The notes: a model not told the origin generated them from the sequence alone. 33,307 nucleotides of DNA from Thermodesulfobacteriota bacterium (GCA_041572575.1 JBFFSH010000024.1:1-33307); one strand, 5' to 3'. Positions 1 to 22,812 are shown, counted from the first letter of the stretch. Program-made: numbers and translations.

Positions 1-1
1 T

Positions 2-790
2 AGAGCTATCGAAGCGGTTGAATTGATGAAAAGTCAAATTGATGATGTAACATTAAACCAACTTAACAATTTGCATGATTATATAGATACAAATAATTTG
101 CTTCAAAACTCTCTTCTTCTCGATAGTCATACATTAAAAAGCATAGAAGGTTATGCAATCAAAATACCTTTTGAAGATATAGAAAAATCACTTACAGAAT
201 ATAAAAGATTATCTATACATCTTGAAGACTTTAAATCTTACAGAAATCAACCCGATGAATATATTTTTAGAACTACAACTTCAGAGACTACTTCTATTGG
301 TAATATTCAATTAAAAACTGTTCTGCATACTCAGTTCCAAGTACAAGAATTAAAGCAAGATTTTAATGACTTTAAAAATGATATAAAGGAAGATTCCAAA
401 AAGAAAGATGAAATGCTAGAAGAGCTTCTAGAGTATTTTAAAAAAGGTGGTAATAGTGTCGTCAAAGTTAAAAAGGTTAAATATAATTCCAAGGATGCAG
501 AACTTATTATAGATGATAGAAAAGTTAATTTGAGAGCGGATTCAAACCAGCATTATATATGCAAAATTTTATTTTCTGATAACGAAAGTGTTAGAAAAAC
601 ATGGGAAATAGTCGATATTGTTGAGTCAATGGGTGAACATTATTCTAATCCCAAGTATTGGAAGAGCTCAATTTACCATTCTATTAGACATCTTAATGAA
701 AAGATACAAATTCAAACAGGCTTAAACAAGTTCATACTTTATGATAATAAAACAATTATTGTTAATCCTAAGTATTTAGACCTTACCTAA
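2..790 (+). CDS. Hypothetical protein, 5'-truncated by the window edge; C-terminus resembles an OmpR/PhoB-type winged-helix DNA-binding domain
   Basis: The frame is open from position 2 (RAIEAVELMKS...) to TAA at 790. The C-terminal ~100 aa (LIIDDRKVNL...ICKILF...IYHSIRHLNEKI...IIVNP) has a winged-helix-like pattern. Confidence 0.6.
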   Translation, partial: RAIEAVELMKSQIDDVTLNQLNNLHDYIDTNNLLQNSLLLDSHTLKSIEGYAIKIPFEDIEKSLTEYKRLSIHLEDFKSYRNQPDEYIFRTTTSETTSIGNIQLKTVLHTQFQVQELKQDFNDFKNDIKEDSKKKDEMLEELLEYFKKGGNSVVKVKKVKYNSKDAELIIDDRKVNLRADSNQHYICKILFSDNESVRKTWEIVDIVESMGEHYSNPKYWKSSIYHSIRHLNEKIQIQTGLNKFILYDNKTIIVNPKYLDLT

Positions 791-794
791 TATT

Positions 795-812
795 CTGCGC
801 AGACTTGCGCAA
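795..812. promoter_or_regulatory. Tandem TGCGCA palindromes 10 bp apart; putative protein-binding site
   Basis: CTGCGCAG (795-802) and TTGCGCAA (805-812) form a GC-rich patch in an AT-rich intergenic spacer. Confidence 0.35.
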
Positions 813-836
813 CACTCTATCTGGCAATCTTTGAGT

Positions 837-1019
837 ATGGATTCAGGGATTGACTTAACTACACAATCTGAACTAGAGAATGCTCTCAGAAATAAAGAGG
901 CTAAAAAGAGATTGTGCACATTTTTCGAGGTTTTAATGAAAATAAATAAGCGTGAAAAATTGGTGAAGATAGAAAATGAAGATAATAAGCGAGATACAGG
1001 TAATTCCAGTAAAAGCTAA
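837..1019 (+). CDS. Small hypothetical protein (~60 aa) of the element
   Basis: ATG at 837 (the track starts at TTG 831). It is co-oriented with the other element genes and overlaps the next gene by 44 nt. Confidence 0.55.
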   Translation: MDSGIDLTTQSELENALRNKEAKKRLCTFFEVLMKINKREKLVKIENEDNKRDTGNSSKS

Positions 1020-1233
1020 CAAGGGATTGATAGCTTTTTGCAGTTTTGTTCTTTATGAATCAATTTACTGTAGTTCTGTTGGAATCTATACAAGTCCTCA
1101 TGGCGGTTATCGTCTTGTATATCCAACCAAGACCGTAAACAAGTGAGACTTAAATATCTTTCATCCCATAAATAATAAACTGGGGAAATTAATTGAATAC
1201 GAGGTAACAAAGATAGTAAAGATAATATTCTAG
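976..1233 (+). pseudogene. SpoVG-like nucleic-acid-binding protein (85 codons) interrupted by an in-frame TGA at 1144-1146
   Basis: Manual translation gives MKIISEIQVIPVKANKGLIAFCSFVLYESIYCSSVGIYTSPHGGYRLVYPTKTVNK*DLNIFHPINNKLGKLIEYEVTKIVKIIF*. The SpoVG-like pattern (MKI.EI...L.AF.S....P......DIFHPIN) continues across the stop. Confidence 0.8.
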
Positions 1234-1259
1234 CAAACATAAAATTTAATGAAAATGTG

Positions 1260-2408
1260 ATGATCGATACAATTACTTTAAGACTTGATGAATCAGAATT
1301 TAGAATTACAGACCATAATAAGTTCAGTCCATGCACATATAACTTTTATTACCCTCCATACACAAGAATGGGAAGCAGAGGCTATCTGGATGCATATCAA
1401 AACCCTACAAGGAAAGAACTGCTCGTAGGTAAGTACAAGCCACAGCTAACACTAAGAAAAAAATGGCAAGGAAATGCGCCTGCAATATATTTATATATTC
1501 AATTTTCAGCACCAAAGATGTTGTATGGTAATAATTTTGATGAAATATCAGATTTAGATTTAGACAATATAATAATGGAGCTAAATTCATTATTAAATGA
1601 AATGGGAGTGAGATTAAGATTGTTCGATTTAAGATTTGCCAAGGTAACCAAGATTCATTATTCAAAAAACATTTTATTACCAGAATATGTTATTTCTAGC
1701 ATGGTGATAGGTGAAGTTAAAAAGTCTAATATCAGTTTGTTTTATGATATTTCGGAAAAGGATTACAGGAATGAAGGTCATAGCTTTCGCTTTCATACTA
1801 ATGAGTTTGAGTTAATTCTATACGATAAAATAAAAGATTTACAAAAATCTAGCAAGAGCGATAGAAAATCGATAGAAAAGGATAATGCAATCCAATTAAA
1901 TCTATTTGATAATATACCGATTCAAAAACCTTTCGATGTATTAAGAATAGAGCTTAGGTTAAATACTCCAGATAAAATTTATAGAGAAACTAGAATTGAT
2001 AAAAAATCACAAACTCTAGAGAAAATGTTTAATAGTGAGATTAGTATAAATCTCTTAAGTAATTGTTGGGGAAATATTATTAAGAACTACCATCTAATCA
2101 GTTGCGACATTGAAGATAAGGAAAATTTTCTAGCTGGATTCTTGATAAACAATCCAGATATTAAATTAACAAATGCCCTTGCTGTATATTCAGCACTTGA
2201 ATTTTTTAAAGACATTGGAGCTAGAAAATTCAGGAATTTAATAGAGGCTAGGTACACAAGAGATACTTGGTATGCCTTAAATAGAAGGATAAGAAACTAT
2301 AATATGAAAAGCAGTTTGCCAAACTATTTACAAGCCATAACAAATTATTTGGAATACTATGAACCTTTGCGCTTAGAAAGCTATAAGGAAATAATTGAAT
2401 CTTCATAG
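1260..2408 (+). CDS. Putative rolling-circle replication initiator, phage gpII/X or Rep_trans-like
   Basis: MIDTITL start, FSAPKMLYGNN, candidate catalytic tyrosine motif LYDK, and LRIELRL; located beside XRE and recombinase genes. Confidence 0.7.
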   Translation: MIDTITLRLDESEFRITDHNKFSPCTYNFYYPPYTRMGSRGYLDAYQNPTRKELLVGKYKPQLTLRKKWQGNAPAIYLYIQFSAPKMLYGNNFDEISDLDLDNIIMELNSLLNEMGVRLRLFDLRFAKVTKIHYSKNILLPEYVISSMVIGEVKKSNISLFYDISEKDYRNEGHSFRFHTNEFELILYDKIKDLQKSSKSDRKSIEKDNAIQLNLFDNIPIQKPFDVLRIELRLNTPDKIYRETRIDKKSQTLEKMFNSEISINLLSNCWGNIIKNYHLISCDIEDKENFLAGFLINNPDIKLTNALAVYSALEFFKDIGARKFRNLIEARYTRDTWYALNRRIRNYNMKSSLPNYLQAITNYLEYYEPLRLESYKEIIESS

Positions 2409-2433
2409 AAATAAGTTTATGATATTTCAATAT

Positions 2434-2646
2434 ATGGAAATCAAGATATCAGACATTCTGACAAGAATAAAGTTGATTAGAGAACAAAATGAGATTACTC
2501 AACGAGAGTTAAGCATTATGTCTGGTATAAGTTATTCCACATTGACAAAACTAGAAACAGGAATAATTAAAAACCCGTCATTTCTAGTGATTTTAAAAAT
2601 ATCAAGAGCTCTAGATATTAAATTGGATGATTTGTTGGTTGATTAA
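2434..2646 (+). CDS. XRE/Cro-C1 family helix-turn-helix regulator
   Basis: IKLIREQNEITQRELSIMSGISYSTLTKLETG...NPS...KISRALDI is a typical HTH_3 pattern. ATG 2434 is preferred to the track start at 2395, which overlaps the rep gene. Confidence 0.9.
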   Translation: MEIKISDILTRIKLIREQNEITQRELSIMSGISYSTLTKLETGIIKNPSFLVILKISRALDIKLDDLLVD

Positions 2647-2666
2647 ATTACAATTATAGAAAAGAC

Positions 2667-4127
2667 ATGAAAGCAATACTTTTAGCAAGAGCATCAACTG
2701 AAGAGCAAGATACCGAAGGTCAATTAATCAAACTTAAAGAATATGCAGATAGGTGTGGTTTTACATATTCCAAAGGAGATATATTTGATTTTCATGAATC
2801 AGCTTATAAACCTGAACGGAAAAAATTTGAACAAGTTATTGAAGGTCTAAAGAATAAGACTAATAGAACAGCTTTATGTTGTGATAAAATAGATAGGCTA
2901 GTTAGAAACTTTCTGATTTATCTACCTATTATTGATGAATTGCGTAAATCTGGGATTGTAGAGCTCCACTTTGCTTCTGATAACATAAAACTAGATAGTG
3001 ACTCCCCAGCTACTGATTTATTTAGGTTCAATATGGGTGTAGCTCTTGCTCAATATTATTCAGATTCAATCAGAGATAATGTAAAAAGATCAATCTATAA
3101 AAGAATTAAGTCTGGTCAAATACTTAGTAAAGCACCTTACGGGTATAAAAATATTACAAATGATGATGATTCAAAGACGATAATTCCAGACCCGTTTGAA
3201 TCTAATATAGTTCTTAAATTATATGAATTATACGCAACTGGTGCATACTCATTCAGAGAACTTAGATCAAAAATCAATAAAGATTTCAATGTTAAATTGG
3301 CTATGTCCACAATTGCGGATATTCTGGATAACAAATTTTATATTGGTATTGCTACATATAAAAAAGAAGGAACTGAGTATCCACATATCTATCCTACTAT
3401 TGTTCCAGAGAATATTTACAATGCAGTACAAGATTTAAAATTGTGTAGAGACCTTAAATCTACAACAAAATTCAAATATGCTGGAAAAATTTTTTATTAC
3501 AGAGGCTTAATTAAGTGTGCTGTTTGTGGTTATTCTTTATCACCAGAAGAGCATAGAGGTAAAAAATATTACTGTTGTACAGAGTATGGAGGTAAACATG
3601 ATGCTAAATATGTGAATGAAGATATTCTAACCGAAGAATTTTCAAATGTTTTTAAGCGTATTTCAGTTTCTGAGGAAACAGCTAAACAAATAATTAAAGA
3701 CCTTCATCAATTAAATGAAACAAATCTTGCAATATCACAAGAACTGATAAATAAACTTAGAAGAGATAAAGATGTAATACGAAATCGAAAATCAAAGTTA
3801 TATGATGACTACTGCGATGCAAGTATTACTAAGGAATTCTATGAAGTAAAACACAAACAATATGAAACCGATTTAAATAAGATTGAAGACAAATTAAGTA
3901 ATGTAGATGAAACTGATAAAAGCTTTTATATTACTGCTGGGTATATAGTTGAGCTTGCTAAGCATAGCAGAGAGTTATTCAGATGTTCGGAATATGAAGA
4001 AAGAAGGCTTTTAATCAAAACTGTACTTACGAACGCTACATGGAATGGCGAAAACCTAAGCTATACTTACTTAGAACCATTCAACCTACTAGCAGAAATG
4101 AACGAAAGTCTGGTATGGGGTGGATGA
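2667..4127 (+). CDS. Large serine recombinase (resolvase, recombinase, Zn-ribbon and coiled-coil regions)
   Basis: ARAS with catalytic Ser10, DKIDRLVRN, APYGY, LDNKFYIG, Zn ribbon KCAVCG...YYCC; 486 aa. Confidence 0.95.
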   Translation: MKAILLARASTEEQDTEGQLIKLKEYADRCGFTYSKGDIFDFHESAYKPERKKFEQVIEGLKNKTNRTALCCDKIDRLVRNFLIYLPIIDELRKSGIVELHFASDNIKLDSDSPATDLFRFNMGVALAQYYSDSIRDNVKRSIYKRIKSGQILSKAPYGYKNITNDDDSKTIIPDPFESNIVLKLYELYATGAYSFRELRSKINKDFNVKLAMSTIADILDNKFYIGIATYKKEGTEYPHIYPTIVPENIYNAVQDLKLCRDLKSTTKFKYAGKIFYYRGLIKCAVCGYSLSPEEHRGKKYYCCTEYGGKHDAKYVNEDILTEEFSNVFKRISVSEETAKQIIKDLHQLNETNLAISQELINKLRRDKDVIRNRKSKLYDDYCDASITKEFYEVKHKQYETDLNKIEDKLSNVDETDKSFYITAGYIVELAKHSRELFRCSEYEERRLLIKTVLTNATWNGENLSYTYLEPFNLLAEMNESLVWGG

Positions 4128-4194
4128 CCGGAATTGAACCGGCGACCTCCTGGGCCACAACCAGGTGCTCTAACCAAGCTGAGCTACACCCACC
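4116..4194 (-). tRNA. tRNA-His (GTG) with encoded G-1 and CCA
   Basis: The reverse complement folds as G-GTGGGTG TA GCTC AGCTTGGTTA GAGC A CCTGG TTGTGGC CCAGG AGGTC GCCGG TTCAATT CCGGT CATCCAC C CCA. The anticodon is at 4158-4156, and the G-1:C73 His identity pair is present. Confidence 0.98.
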
Positions 4195-4246
4195 ATACTA
4201 ATTAATAAGGATCGTTATTTTACATAATAAAAATAAAAATTACAGA

Positions 4247-4606
4247 CTATTTGTGTGCTTTATTAATATTTTCTAAATATTCCTTTAATGCTGCTGCATT
4301 ATTATACTTTGTTTCCTTTGCGCTGAACATAAGAGTAGTCTTTGAATTTGATATAATACTGAGGAAATGATCCAGATTAATACTATCAAGCTCACGAAAA
4401 TATCTTTTCTTAAATTCCACCCATTTATCCGGGGTGTGATTAAACCATTTTCTTAATTCATGAGAAGGTGCGATATCTTTTTCCCAGTGATCCACCCTGG
4501 CCTTGTCTTTAGATAATCCTCTGGGCCATAGCCTGTCTACAAGGATTCTTTTGCCGTCCTCTACCGATGGTTTATCATAAATTCTCTTGATTTTGATGTC
4601 GGACAT
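4247..4606 (-). CDS. DUF488 / YeaO family protein
   Basis: IKIKRIYD...RILVDRLWPRGLSK...WEKDIAPSHELRKWFNH...NNAAALKEYL; likely ATG at 4606. Confidence 0.92.
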   Translation of the reverse strand: MSDIKIKRIYDKPSVEDGKRILVDRLWPRGLSKDKARVDHWEKDIAPSHELRKWFNHTPDKWVEFKKRYFRELDSINLDHFLSIISNSKTTLMFSAKETKYNNAAALKEYLENINKAHK

Positions 4607-4665
4607 AACAAGCTGGATCAAATTAGTGTAATAATATCAGGGGAACAAAAACATAGATAAAAAGT

Positions 4666-5010
4666 TTATAGTTCTGCAGAATTTTTCATATAATATTTTA
4701 ATAGTTCTGCATTTGGTCTGTTAAACTTAATGCCCATCTTGGCCTGCTGATTAGGGTGTTCGGTAACCCATACTACTTTGCCTTCCACTGTAACAACTTC
4801 GTCCACTAACATGTTTTCCGAATCATATTTGGTAAGGTGAATATTAATACATATGGACGCGTCTACTGGAAGGGCAACATCGGAGAGAAGAGAAAGACCA
4901 TTTGGAGAGAGGTTATAGGTGTATCCGTCATTTATAGGATGGTTGGTCGAAAATGTGACTTTTTCATCTACTAAAATTCTTGGATGCTCTCTTCTTTCTT
5001 TATCAGACAT
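4666..5010 (-). CDS. Stand-alone PilZ domain protein (c-di-GMP receptor)
   Basis: RxxxR motif (RREHPR), D/NxSxxG motif (NLSPNG), and GKVVW...MGIKF. Confidence 0.9.
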   Translation of the reverse strand: MSDKERREHPRILVDEKVTFSTNHPINDGYTYNLSPNGLSLLSDVALPVDASICINIHLTKYDSENMLVDEVVTVEGKVVWVTEHPNQQAKMGIKFNRPNAELLKYYMKNSAEL

Positions 5011-18846: not shown

Positions 18847-20436
18847 TTATTTATTATTTGATATTCTTCTTTTAATAATTTCTCTAAACAACCGCTTAAT
18901 ATTTTTATCCGAGTCGGTATTCTCGTTTGTATTAGTCTTGAAATAAATATCTTTTAAACAATCTGAAGGTCTGTTGAATTTTTGCTTGAAGCTTTTAAAC
19001 AGGCCTATTCTCGCATCAGATATAGACTTATTACTGTCCCTGGCAAGTAGTCTTTGTTTTATGACCTTGTCTGAAGTTTTAGTTTCAATGTAAATGATAT
19101 TTGATTTCCATTTCTGTGAATTATTTATAATTTTATTCCTATAACTCTCAGCAGAAAAACTTGCATCCAAAATTACTATGTTCTTTAGCAAAAGTTGTTC
19201 ATGGGCCTGTTTGAACATTTCATCATAGGTTTTATTGGTCATATTTTTAGAATATAATCCATCATACAAATGCTCCCCTGCTTTTTGAGTAAGTGGAATC
19301 CCGGCCAGATTTTTTCTCGTAACATCCGATGAAATCACATTGCATCCAAGCTCCGACGATAATCTGTCGGCAAATGTAGATTTACCCGATGCAATTAATC
19401 CAAATATTACTATTACTACAGGGTCGCTACCAAAAAGGGCATATCTTGTAGAAAGCTGAAAATATTTTTTTGCATTCTGAACTGACTTAACCTTTTCGTC
19501 TTTTGGTAAATTTTTGTCCTCTGCCCTTATGCTTCCGACCTTTCCACGCACATATGCCCTGTAGCATTTATAAAAATCAACAAGTCTGAGCGTTTTACTA
19601 TCTTCCATTTTGTTGAGAATGGAGCTAATAAAATATCTTGAAAGATCAAAGCGCGCATTATAATCAAGGTCCATTGATAAAAATGCGATATCACAAACAT
19701 AGTCTATAAAACGAAAACTATTATTAAATTCAATACAATCAAATATCTCAATTTCATTTTGCCTAACAATAACATGCTCAAGGTGCAAATCCCCATGACA
19801 GTCTTTTATATAACCATTGCTAACCCTTCTTTCCAGTCGTTCCTTATTTACTCTTAAGAACAAGTTGTTGAAATATTTAATAGTTTCGAATGCAGTTCGA
19901 GTTATAGTTTTACCAACAAACTTTTCTCCCAATTCTCTATTTTGTTTTAGAGTATTTTTTATGTGTTTGGGGCTTCCATATTTAGGCAGTTTGTCTGGTG
20001 GTGTTTGTAAGATGTAAAATTTATGAAGTCTATCACTTATTCTTTTAATTTCTCTTTTGCTAATTTTATTCTTGGCAAGTAAATTTTTCACGAAATATCT
20101 TTCAGGGATCCTCTTCATTTTCACAAGATAGTCGCAAACTACTCCGTTTTTTTGAAAACTATAATTTCCCCTGTCGTACATAACGGGTACTACACCAAGA
20201 TATGAATTACTAAGTCTTGAATTCAAAGATACTTCCTGTTCGCAGTAATATTTTCTTTTACCAAGAGTAGAGAAATCCAGGAATCCAAAATTTACCGGTT
20301 TTTTTAATTTGTATACAAAATTTCCAGCTATAAAAACATATGAGGCATGGGTCTGAATAACATTTACATTTTTATTCTTTAACCCATATGTAGCAGGATC
20401 GGATAAGAATTTAATTAACCCTTTATAATATCTCAT
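18847..20436 (-). CDS. Bifunctional APH-like phosphotransferase / AAA_33 P-loop kinase (Rv2004c-like, COG2187 + COG0645)
   Basis: QTHASYVF...YKLKKPVNFGFLDFSTL, DCHGDLHLEH, FDCIEFN, YRAYVRGKV, and P-loop GLIASGKST. Confidence 0.92.
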   Translation of the reverse strand: MRYYKGLIKFLSDPATYGLKNKNVNVIQTHASYVFIAGNFVYKLKKPVNFGFLDFSTLGKRKYYCEQEVSLNSRLSNSYLGVVPVMYDRGNYSFQKNGVVCDYLVKMKRIPERYFVKNLLAKNKISKREIKRISDRLHKFYILQTPPDKLPKYGSPKHIKNTLKQNRELGEKFVGKTITRTAFETIKYFNNLFLRVNKERLERRVSNGYIKDCHGDLHLEHVIVRQNEIEIFDCIEFNNSFRFIDYVCDIAFLSMDLDYNARFDLSRYFISSILNKMEDSKTLRLVDFYKCYRAYVRGKVGSIRAEDKNLPKDEKVKSVQNAKKYFQLSTRYALFGSDPVVIVIFGLIASGKSTFADRLSSELGCNVISSDVTRKNLAGIPLTQKAGEHLYDGLYSKNMTNKTYDEMFKQAHEQLLLKNIVILDASFSAESYRNKIINNSQKWKSNIIYIETKTSDKVIKQRLLARDSNKSISDARIGLFKSFKQKFNRPSDCLKDIYFKTNTNENTDSDKNIKRLFREIIKRRISNNK

Positions 20437-20482
20437 TCATTTATCGAGGCTATATAAAAAACAAATAATATATACATCTAAG

Positions 20483-20499
20483 TGCAACTTCGGTGCCAA
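20483..20499 (-). promoter_or_regulatory. Sigma54 (-24/-12) promoter
   Basis: TTGGCAC-CGAAG-TTGCA on the minus strand is a perfect match to TGGCAC-N5-TTGCA, ending 46 nt before the ATG at 20436. Confidence 0.85.
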
Positions 20500-20673
20500 G
20501 ATAATTATAATGGAGACGGTTATGTTCACATTGGAAAGAAACTATGATTTATTACTCTATTTTACTAATATAGAGATAGTTTTTGTGGGAATTATAAATA
20601 ACCAGATATATTTCATTACCTAAATCATAAATATTAAGTTGGAAATAACTTTATCTATAACAATGTTATTGTA

Positions 20674-20705
20674 TGTCCTAATTTAAGACACTGTGCATAT
20701 TGACA
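20674..20705. promoter_or_regulatory. Candidate enhancer-binding-protein sites
   Basis: Imperfect palindrome TGTCCTAATTTAAGACA (20674-20690) and adjacent TGTGCATATTGACA (20692-20705), lying between two sigma54 motifs. Confidence 0.4.
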
Positions 20706-20739
20706 GGGATTAAATCCAATAATTTGAACTGCTTAGACA

Positions 20740-20755
20740 TGGTATATGGTTTGCA
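20740..20755 (+). promoter_or_regulatory. Sigma54 (-24/-12) promoter upstream of ftsH
   Basis: TGGTAT-ATGGT-TTGCA with exact GG-N10-GC spacing, about 90 nt upstream of the ATG at 20848. Confidence 0.65.
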
Positions 20756-20847
20756 CTAAAAATCGTTAGTACTACTTTATTTGATGATAACTATCAGTAA
20801 GTTATGTAGACTATTGCTTATTAAAAACATTAATAAATACAAATAAA

Positions 20848-22812
20848 ATGACCTCTGAAAATAATAATCAAAGATCAGATATCAAAAAATCACCACAAAA
20901 TATATTATTAATATATTTACTTTTGTTAATGGCTTTTCTTATATGGAACGGAATTAAATATGCTAATAAACAACAAGATGAAATTAAAATACCTTATTCA
21001 GAATTTATTAAACAACTCAAATCCGATAATGTTCGTAAAGTAGTAATAGAAGAAGATAAAATCAAAGGATCATTTCTTAAAGCGATATTGTTTTCAGACC
21101 TTACAATTTATAAACAAGATATGGAAGCCAGGTCAAAATATGATGAAGAATTCAAAGACACTGGAAAAACTTTTACAGGGTTTCAGACAACATTTCCACA
21201 AGCCATAGGAGATCCAAATCTGCTGGTCCTGCTTGAACAACATAACGTGATGGTAGATGTAATATCGTCTACGAGAAATAAGTTGATTACAACACTTCTA
21301 TCATGGCTTCCTTTTTTATTATTAATATTGTTTTTCCTATGGATGAGCAATCAGGCTATGGGCAGGAGGGGTAATATGTTTGGGTTTGGCAAGAGCAAAG
21401 CCAGACTCTACCAGGGAGATAAAAAGGTAGTCACTTTTGATGACATTGCCGGAGCGGATGAGGCAAAGGCTCAGCTTCAGCAGGAGGTGGATTTTCTTAG
21501 TAATCCCAAGAAATATCATGATATAGGGGCAAAAATACCAAGAGGAATTCTTCTAATTGGTCCACCGGGTACCGGAAAAACTCTACTTGCAAAAGCAGTA
21601 GCGGGTGAAGCCGGTGTTCCATTTTTGAGCATCAGCGCCTCGGAATTTGTAGAGATGTTCGTAGGGGTCGGAGCAAGCCGGGTAAGAGACCTGTTTGCTC
21701 AGGGAAAGCAGGCAGCACCCTCTATAATATTTATTGATGAGCTTGATGCAGTAGCCAGAAGAAGAGGTGCAGGGATGGGAACTGTGAATGACGAGCGAGA
21801 ACAGACACTCAACCAGCTCCTTGTGGAAATGGATGGATTTGACGAAAGACTCGAAGTCATTATTCTAGCGGCAACCAACAGACCCGATGTGCTTGATCCG
21901 GCGCTACTGCGTCCCGGACGATTTGACAGGCAAGTAGCACTCGGACTACCCGATAGAGAGGGTCGAAAGGGTATATTAAAGATTCATACACGCAGACTCA
22001 AGCTTGACCCCGACGTGGATTTTTCATTACTAGCTCGTTCCAGTACCGGAATGAGCGGAGCAGACCTAGCAAACCTCTGTAATGAAGCGGCGCTTGTTGC
22101 AGCGAGAAAGGATAATAAAAAAGTTTGTATGGCCGATTTTGAACAGGCTTTTGACAAGGTTCTGCTTGGTGAAAAACGCAAGCTGTATATGGATCCAAAG
22201 GAGAGGGAAGTAATTGCGTATCATGAGGCGGGACATGCTGTAGCTGCCTGGTTTATACCAGAGGCAGACCAGGTGCATAAAGTAACTATAATACCCCACG
22301 GAAAGGCGCTTGGAGTAACACAGCAGCTACCCACTGAAGATCATTATAACCTCAGCAAAGCTTATTTGATGGCCAGACTCGCAGTGCTGCTTGCAGGACG
22401 AACAGCTGAAGAAATAGCAATAGGAGAAATTACTACGGGGGCAGAAAATGACCTTATTGAGGCTACGCAGCTTGCACGTAAAATGGTCACCCGATGGGGT
22501 ATGGGTAAGCTCGGTTTGAGAGCGTTTAGAGCAGATGAGGAGCATCCGTTTTTGGGCTATGAGCTTTCAAGAGGCAAGGACTATAGTGAGTCAACCGCTG
22601 CCATTGTTGATGAAGAAGTTAAAAAATTGCTTGATAAGTCGCACGAAACAGTGCATAAAATCTTAGTAAGTAATAAAGAAAAGCTGGATGCTACAGTACA
22701 TTTATTACTAAAAGATGAAACAATTGATTCTAAAGAACTTGAAAAGATATTAGGACCACGAGGATTACTCAAGATAGTAGAAAAGCCCAAACAGAACACA
22801 AACGATATATAA
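20848..22812 (+). CDS. ftsH: ATP-dependent zinc metalloprotease FtsH
   Basis: Two TM helices, Walker [49 protein letters not shown], and HEAGH. Confidence 0.98.

Follow-up and report, generated by a model that had tools for sequence, protein, structure and literature searches.

The first 4,194 nucleotides of the window (the whole 33,307-nt stretch analysed here, JBFFSH010000024.1:1-33307, from the Thermodesulfobacteriota bacterium assembly GCA_041572575.1) form the right two-thirds of an element of ~6,275 bp of low-GC DNA that lies between a pilin gene and a tRNA-His gene. We consider it probable that this 6.3-kb element, seated at the 3′ end of the tRNA gene, excises as a circle by means of the large serine recombinase that it encodes, with a Rep-like protein predicted to support rolling-circle replication or nicking for transfer. 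Within its family, which is unusual, widespread and apparently unpublished, the window copy is an ordinary member that may have become immobilised. Six frames, all on the + strand, occupy this part of the window: the end of an open reading frame (ORF1), a 62-aa ORF, a SpoVG-like gene, the gene for the 383-aa Rep-like protein, an XRE-family helix-turn-helix (HTH) regulator and the recombinase. An earlier note on this DNA had described such a co-oriented module; its gene positions were as claimed, but the 85-aa SpoVG-like protein that it listed does not correspond to an open frame, as a TGA codon stands at 1144–1146.

The window opens contig C24 of an assembly that measures 2.6 Mb and is 96% complete. 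On its right the element is bounded by tRNA-His (GTG) at 4116–4193 on the − strand, identified by ARAGORN as the only tRNA in the window and the sole tRNA-His of the assembly, and left intact by the element. In agreement with the earlier note, the recombinase ends at the tRNA 3′ end: the final 12 nt of its gene overlap the tRNA and, since the latter lies on the − strand across the recombinase end, the CCA end and acceptor stem of the tRNA are complementary to the three last sense codons of the recombinase and its TGA stop. GC content was 0.295–0.302 over window positions 1–4000, compared with 0.33–0.44 across most of the remaining window.

The left part of the element was found on contig C94 (7,698 nt), whose reverse complement ends in the exact first 141 nt of the window; no other contig of the assembly shares these 141 nt. 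The ORF1 frame runs across the join, from C94:3-407(−). Leftward on the element strand there follow a 287-aa gene, DUF3800-like according to an Atlas lead, and then ~1 kb without intact frames, with a 183-aa prepilin-like gene and a PilY1-like gene (>1,573 aa) further left. GC content in C94 is 0.25–0.30 up to ~2500 and 0.36–0.50 beyond. A conserved attachment-site arm (P′, described below) was located at C94:2295, 90 nt past the pilin stop, and its position fixes both the left end and the ~6,275-bp length of the element. A 34.5-kb contig from one metagenomic run, itself a possible source of the window DNA, carries ~6.1 kb left of window base 1, a stretch that may correspond to C94. Family scans matched no phage structural (capsid) or conjugation families in the window part or in the left extension, as the earlier note had stated for the part visible to it, and the extension holds no tailed prophage. 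The cargo of this element consists only of the DUF3800-like gene and pseudogene debris.

The Rep-like protein and the serine recombinase

The 383-aa protein (1257–2408, + strand) was characterised through its predicted structure. An AlphaFold (AF2) model based on 55 sequences reached a predicted local distance difference test (pLDDT) score of 84.8 and a predicted template modelling (pTM) score of 0.83. When this model was compared with ~48,000 solved chains using VIA, the best match was RepSTK1 (4cij_A; Z 9.2 over 208 residues, root-mean-square deviation 4.4), followed by RepDE (4cwc_A; Z 8.8) and then by TATA-binding proteins (TBP; 5.8 and 5.4). The BFVD collection gave 11 matches at E≤1e-3 (best 3.8e-8), of which the named ones are Inoviridae replication (G2P-type) proteins. 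These structural matches support the Rep_trans/gpII fold that the earlier note had proposed, and the TBP-like crescent is a published hallmark of Rep_trans proteins (PMC4797284, PMC13107129).

Eight residues are invariant in the family of the 383-aa protein (D4, E185, Y189, K191, D194, R230, E232 and R234). Among them, Y189-x-K191-x-x-D194 (Y-x-K-x-x-acidic) spans strand 184–190 and the following helix 191–200 of the model, the same strand-then-helix arrangement in which RepD carries Y191, K193 and E196 (PMC4797284). The likeness to the pT181-family proteins RepD and RepSTK1 (4cwc, 4cij) and to gpII of filamentous phages extends to the crescent TBP-like fold, to a C-terminal helical domain and to the spacing of the motif, with a strand Tyr followed by Lys at +2 and, in the helix after it, by an acidic residue at +5 (PMC4797284). 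Unlike those proteins, the one described here is 383 aa long with a long insert at ~200–227, shows no significant sequence match to them and is encoded beside an integrase on an integrated element. The invariant D4 may be the counterpart of the N-terminal metal ligand, which in RepSTK1 is D9 (PMC4797284). Together with D4, the invariant E185 and E232 are candidate acidic metal ligands. On the strength of model and motif, the 383-aa protein is a predicted rolling-circle initiator or nickase, with Tyr189 as its putative catalytic residue.

The family consists of proteins of ~380 aa. A word-indexed search placed 461 proteins in it, with no Pfam domain on record among the 120 listed, and an exhaustive profile search of 1.84 billion cluster representatives returned 1398 of them at E≤1e-3. 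The best 150 of these were all close family and included no named Rep_trans protein, so that the search provided no bridge to named Rep_trans proteins. PADLOC gave no match for Rep, SpoVG or the 287-aa protein.

The recombinase gene (2667–4127, + strand) encodes 486 aa in its integrated form. Pfam matches were obtained to Resolvase (E 2.8e-21, residues 3–151), Recombinase (PF07508, E 4.2e-8) and Zn_ribbon_recom (PF13408, E 1.7e-7), together with a PHROG integrase match at E 1.8e-61, and residues R8 and S10 are invariant in 30 relatives. A catalytic resolvase domain with its serine is thus followed by Recombinase and zinc-ribbon domains, the layout of a large serine recombinase. tRNA 3′ ends are normally the territory of tyrosine integrases.

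The right junction of the element (attR, 4100–4140) has the order P arm, GT, tRNA, with the tRNA acceptor and T-arm standing as the B′ arm of the attachment site. In a relative, genome G030, an 81-nt remnant of an older recombinase C-terminus was found left of the element, leading into an arm that begins ACCTTAGTAGACGTATTCCGAACGAAGAT. The same arm is present in C94 from 2295 downwards, with a 20-mer identical to G030 and 25 of 29 nt in agreement when the preceding 9 nt are included; this P′ arm is conserved despite an ORF1 that is only 48% identical between the two genomes. The P arm (window 4108–4118) and the P′ arm (C94 2292–2282) agree at 9 of 11 positions, inverted around a 4-nt spacer, and the dyad symmetry of both arms would place the crossover at its central GT (4120–4121).

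The recombinase gene itself contains this attachment site, and the integrated form of the gene ends W-G-G-stop within the tRNA. Translation of the P′ arm in frame with the recombinase gives a 39-aa tail, uninterrupted in the window genome and in G030, which begins with the nine residues T-L-x-D-V-F-R-T-K in both. With this tail the recombinase of the circle form would have ~524 aa as against 486 aa when integrated; integration swaps 39 codons for one codon and a stop taken from the tRNA. A Trp codon near the recombinase C-terminus, the complement of the tRNA CCA, is found in most of the elements listed. A comparable tail occurs in locus L064, a 9,230-nt contig from a Saccharibacteria metagenome-assembled genome (MAG) that has a 75-nt terminal overlap and no tRNA, and whose 531-aa recombinase continues past a 10-nt tRNA-like stub into the tail. 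Of 36 whole contigs tested for a terminal overlap, L064 alone had one, and it is a probable circular element of 9.2 kb. Tandem junctions in two further loci (L050 and L074) have the same P/P′ form.

Comparison of sites revealed two motifs outside the crossover. GGA(C/T/A) stands at +15 from the CCA complement in 10 of the 11 sites compared, the G030 junction having AGAC there. GAAC is found at +21 in all four tRNA sites, and in seven attP-type sites at +26 (five) or +27 (two), the position in L064 having been read by eye from CAAC. In large serine integrases the spacing of the zinc-ribbon motif differs between attP and attB, and the 5–6-nt offset of GAAC would parallel that difference.

A third P′-like site, with two mismatches in 20, occurs on contig C8 at ~base 3251 (+ coordinates), upstream of minor-pilin genes (encoding proteins of 220 aa, 418 aa (PilW-like) and 201 aa (PilX-like)) and of a PilY1-like gene that the contig end cuts short after its start. 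These pilin genes appear to continue into C94:2386-7698; no sequence overlap joins C8 and C94. Given this site and the apparent continuation, two attachment-type sites next to tRNA-His may flank a type IV minor-pilin operon, as in tandem accretion.

A widespread family at tRNA 3′ ends

Relatives of the Rep protein are encoded at 281 places, counted with one representative genome per species. The record titles name Patescibacteria lineages, Alpha- and Gammaproteobacteria, Rickettsiales, Omnitrophota, Dehalococcoidia, Dependentiae and others, the family being commonest in Patescibacteria and other small-genome lineages. Gene order was counted over 80 loci kept, with denominators that vary by feature. 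A related recombinase lies downstream of Rep on the same strand in 60 of 63 loci, at a gap of 24 to 6,821 nt (median 2,970), and a tRNA adjoins the recombinase end in 32 of 47 (Asn 15, His 8, Arg 5, Gln 2, Pro 2). The element family suspected in the earlier note is therefore real, in that the same gene order recurs in many phyla beside tRNA 3′ ends. When seven loci without a called tRNA were searched with Rfam, four showed a tRNA 3′ half followed by a group I intron (L039:15546-15794, L083:16834-17061, L054:9671-9935 and L098:13710-13912); ARAGORN calls no tRNA at these four because the intron interrupts the tRNA gene. In a quick tree of 53 recombinases, in which the target labels of loci without a called tRNA were taken from the sequence stub, the target tRNA was clustered with several switches (8 changes, compared with a shuffled mean of 22).

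Within the order to which the window genome belongs, the same module was found at tRNA-His in three of 40 relatives (G030, G025 and G034), and 37 of the 40 searched gave no match to the window Rep. Five relatives' tRNA-His loci were fetched and contained no element gene within 1.5 kb. These loci favour the reading of the earlier note; an empty-site allele with matching flanks was not identified, 12 relatives conserving only the tRNA while their flanking genes are not syntenic. The window genome itself carries a second member of the family on contig C32 (L011:3726-10812), at tRNA-Gln(CTG), with a Rep that is 38% identical. In this element the small ORF shows the family motif, two frames together encode a Type ISP/MmeI-like restriction enzyme as cargo, and a single in-frame TGA interrupts the recombinase gene.

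Cargo in relatives lies between Rep and the recombinase or left of ORF1. It comprises a type I restriction-modification (RM) system in G030, whose HsdR has a C-terminal Schlafen/AlbA_2 domain, Avs2 in G034 (PADLOC 1.5e-164) and a Type IIG-like RM system in L064. The G030 element measures ~14.3 kb (L012:814-15170), and its left part holds three opposite-strand genes (EcsC-like, DUF4145 and unknown). A metagenome scan with a single Rep protein found eight distant loci, none with a terminal overlap.

Several recombinases in the tree are near-identical, with branch lengths of 0.006–0.07 (L097/L098, L039/L056, L041/L042 and L072/L081+L087), and the paired MAGs bear titles from different phyla, such as Saccharibacteria versus Pseudomonadales and Promethearchaeota versus Actinomycetota. 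These cases reflect either mis-binning or very recent transfer across phyla.

A search of the openly accessible literature (main texts) found no published description of this module, and the family appears to be undescribed as well as widespread. SSV1-type integrases of archaeal viruses and plasmids are tyrosine recombinases with attP inside the integrase frame, their gene being cut in two by integration. Here too attP lies within the integrase frame; unlike the SSV1 type, it is a serine recombinase that loses only a 39-aa tail. The actinomycete element pSAM2 is tRNA-integrated and has a tyrosine integrase, a HUH-type Rep and transfer genes. Integration in a tRNA gene and rolling-circle replication after excision, the latter predicted here, are shared with pSAM2, whereas the types of integrase and Rep differ, and the transfer genes of pSAM2 have no counterpart here.

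Rolling-circle replication of pSAM2 is mentioned in PMC3146451, a paper on the ssrA islands of Dehalococcoides (DsiB), the authors of which suggest that the recombinase gene is complete perhaps only on the circle. As in the present family, the 3′ end of a large serine recombinase gene there overlaps an attachment site in a tRNA-like gene, and islands stand in tandem at one site (PMC3146451). The ssrA islands differ in using tmRNA as target with a 20-bp repeat and in having DsiA, RecF-like, ParB-like and Mom-like genes with no Rep_trans-fold protein and no SpoVG (PMC3146451). Searches of the element's ORFs gave no match to DsiA, RecF-like, ParB-like or Mom-like domains. Integrative mobilisable elements (IMEs) of streptococci and other Firmicutes combine a serine integrase with a Rep_trans/MOB-T initiator (PMC5357655, PMC5704250). 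Like the element described here, they are compact and lack transfer machinery of their own, and they combine cargo and small HTH regulators with a site-specific integrase and an initiator of the rolling-circle type. They differ from it in several respects: its Rep fails the Pfam Rep_trans and Phage_CRI models, its module adds SpoVG, the ~60-aa protein and an OmpR-type winged-helix protein, and its attachment site lies inside the integrase gene. The hosts also differ: the present family occurs in Patescibacteria, Proteobacteria and, in the case of the window element, a lineage with nearest relatives that carry the titles delta-proteobacteria or Thermodesulfobacteriota. None of these nearest known kinds (Firmicutes IMEs, ssrA islands, pSAM2-type elements) has this module.

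Proposed excision and replication, and rival explanations

For excision, rolling-circle replication and the transfer route, we infer the following course of events. The recombinase would read the tRNA acceptor and T-arm as attB, and the P′ arm of the element would mimic the T-arm with its GAAC element 5–6 nt further out; the conserved 39-aa recombinase tail would be restored on the circle. After excision, Rep would nick an origin through Tyr189, perhaps at the palindrome after ORF1. ORF1, as a winged-helix protein, and the XRE protein would act as regulators, and the small ORF and SpoVG would supply accessory factors. A broader proposal, which we put forward tentatively and regard as rather doubtful, is that the family comprises pan-bacterial minimal integrative rolling-circle replicons, richest in Patescibacteria, with an integrase that is whole only on the circle. 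Their attP would be a mimic of the acceptor and T-arm of tRNAs in which the outer motif is displaced by roughly half a turn of the helix, allowing hops among tRNA-His, -Asn, -Arg, -Gln and -Pro. They would ferry defence systems and, by tandem accretion, maybe a minor-pilin operon, with SpoVG and the 60-aa protein as dedicated replication and directionality factors.

If these proposals are true, uncultured bacteria with small genomes have a very common vehicle of RM and Avs-type defence genes that is still without a name. They would also show a serine integrase using tRNA 3′ ends by way of a tRNA look-alike arm inside its own gene, with the swap of the integrase tail as a built-in switch between circle and chromosome forms. 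The Rep family would extend the Rep_trans superfamily past the reach of sequence models, the enigmatic SpoVG fold would gain a recurring genetic partner, and integrases with a short natural attB in conserved tRNAs may serve genome engineering.

The SpoVG-like gene (976–1233, + strand) bears on both the mechanism and the state of the window copy. Its frame ends after 56 codons at the TGA of 1144–1146, beyond which SpoVG homology resumes. The intact G030 protein (88 aa) is 76% identical over 67 aa and has Thr at the position of the stop. Among 57 orthologues compared, only the window copy has an internal stop; the family column is mostly K, R or G, with codons one base change from TGA. Recoding of TGA was considered and rejected, since this host uses TGA as a stop, at the end of 185 of its 1046 long frames, and showed no tRNA with anticodon UCA, and since the column is one base from TGA. 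Taken together with the Thr of G030 and the uniqueness of the stop, this indicates that the TGA is a nonsense mutation. With the SpoVG model of Pfam (PF04026), the L064 orthologue passes (36.5 bits against a cut-off of 29.6), that of G030 falls below (24 bits) and the 56-aa frame of the window gives no match. Family-wide, SpoVG is the commonest neighbour upstream of Rep (58 of 75 loci).

A number of observations count against excision as a circle and replication by a Rep_trans-type protein. No Pfam, PHROG or NCBIfam model matches the 383-aa protein, a genome search with the PF05144 (Phage_CRI) and PF02486 (Rep_trans) models did not find its gene, and Phage_CRI was touched by only one of 55 relatives (E 1.6e-3). 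A sequence-profile search of PDB chains returned nothing relevant, and Foldseek against the PDB, in which the 4cij and 4cwc entries were again top-ranked, gave a weak E of 3.5e-3 with low TM scores. Because the sequence-level models fail, the protein is filed by its modelled fold and its motif: it has a Rep_trans fold and motif in the model, and is not a member of PF02486 or PF05144. At the left junction GAC-AC precedes the P′ arm, where clean integration should leave TGGG-GT, and no TGGGGT was found beside a P′ arm. The repeat of the tRNA-His 3′ end for which the earlier note proposed to look was found neither in the extension (blastn, word 7) nor in the assembly at ≤3 mismatches per 20–30 nt. 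A decayed older P arm may lie left of this junction, but its local alignment was not significant (46 of 500 shuffles score as high).

Further points on the same side concern circles and gene content. The contigs of four runs (Logan; contigs only, no reads) contained no circle or empty-site joints; neither a circular nor an empty-site form of the window element was seen. The relative L064 is a probable rather than a proven circle, as the name of its contig gives a k of 99 and the overlap measures 75 nt. No relative was found among PLSDB plasmids, INPHARED phages or IMG/VR, so that these collections record no such element as an isolated replicon. The window copy of SpoVG is disrupted, and searches of the four nearest relatives failed to find the gene in three; it is therefore dispensable in this clade, where a gpV-like role for it is weakened. 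The element has no helicase, ssDNA-binding protein, coupling protein or packaging gene.

A near-identical sequence over window 1–4300 was found in 20 runs from 11 studies of sediment, soil, marine and estuary metagenomes, 19 of the 20 being possible sources of the window DNA. In run X8, an element contig covering window ~137–4143 has a depth of 18.6 and the right flank contig a depth of 23, and a shorter contig of 1,059 nt, at depth 5.06, connects to the tRNA end at 4114, bringing a recombinase-like C-terminus of another kind. Although contig depths are a weak measure, these values and the alternative contig hint at polymorphism at the site. The assembly breaks at window 1–141 and the X8 contig begins at ~137, both inside ORF1, which suggests that element variants differing in their left part occur together.

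Regardless of how the family behaves in other genomes, it is quite possible that the window copy is a fixed remnant, decaying and no longer mobile, and simply passenger DNA. The copy may be immobile given a left junction that lacks the tRNA-derived core and GT and a SpoVG gene with a nonsense codon; the lack of any intact frame in the ~1 kb that separates the P′ arm from the 287-aa gene, the in-frame TGA in the recombinase of the second element at tRNA-Gln and the recurrence of the near-identical sequence, tRNA junction included, in many runs also fit decay. Yet the recombinase, Rep, XRE, ORF1 and the frame of the 39-codon tail are all open, every family-invariant residue is present, and the X8 depths (23/18.6/5.06) hint at a polymorphic site.

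Two other explanations concern the function of Rep. It seems unlikely that the element is an integrative mobilisable element in which Rep is mainly a relaxase (compare MOB-T) that nicks an oriT, the circle being transferred by helper conjugation and replication being incidental. Members of the family occur most often in Patescibacteria and further lineages with small genomes, where conjugation systems are generally rare. The element contains no coupling protein or oriT-type accessory gene, the host genome not having been searched for type IV secretion. On the other side, Rep_trans-family proteins are relaxases of conjugative transposons and of integrative and conjugative elements (PMC4797284, PMC6499999, PMC9371924), and an integrase with an initiator and no transfer genes is an IME layout (PMC5357655, PMC5704250). 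We regard as very improbable a satellite of a filamentous (ino-like) phage, with Rep as gpII, SpoVG coating the single strand as gpV does and a helper providing coat and export. The best viral structure matches are indeed Inoviridae replication proteins, SpoVG stands directly upstream of Rep in most loci, and Borrelia SpoVG binds RNA, ssDNA and dsDNA (PMC11086051). However, no coat, pI/Zot-like or other morphogenesis gene occurs in any annotated element, the extension and L064 included, the SpoVG gene is disrupted in the window copy and missing from three of its four nearest relatives, and no relative was found in IMG/VR or INPHARED.

Upstream genes and neighbouring DNA

ORF1 is represented in the window by its C-terminal 262 aa (2–790, + strand), being cut by the contig start; the whole ORF of ~351 aa begins in C94. 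Its family has only 30 homologues. For the G030 orthologue, a model reached a pLDDT of 59.6 overall and 80–88 over residues 235–335, and this C-terminal part matched the DNA-binding domains of GlnR, OmpR, ToxR and PhoB (prob 0.97–1.0, TMt 0.57–0.69). The C-terminal domain of ORF1 is therefore predicted in the model to be an OmpR/PhoB-type winged helix.

Directly 3′ of the ORF1 stop lies a palindrome (796–811), consisting of TGCGCA twice with a 4-nt gap. It is kept in all five His-clade elements, in which the flanking proteins are only 44–61% identical, and in other clades different palindromes are often found ~190–270 nt upstream of SpoVG. This pattern points to a specificity site, a candidate operator or double-strand origin.

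The 62-aa ORF (831–1019, + strand) encodes a small protein found family-wide, with the motif RLxxFFxxLIEIDxR; its G030 orthologue is 49% identical, and a small ORF fitting the motif pattern was present in 28 of the 50 loci with a complete recombinase. It may be a recombination directionality factor or a Rep accessory factor, both being possible. The XRE-family HTH regulator (2395–2646, + strand) matched Pfam HTH_3 at E 1.2e-13, and in L064 an excisionase-family HTH takes its place. This protein and the recombinase are the only two of the six frames with a Pfam match, the other four having none, and PHROGs agrees.

To the right of the tRNA, window 4247–5010 holds a DUF488 gene (PF22752, E 2.3e-33) and a PilZ-domain gene (E 1.8e-10), both on the − strand. 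These are host genes and are not syntenic with the tRNA-His loci of relatives. Further into the window, GC content falls to 0.271 for ~1 kb (20001–21000) and then rises to 0.41–0.44, and the sign of the GC skew changes from 21 kb; this change may mark another foreign-DNA boundary or an operon switch.

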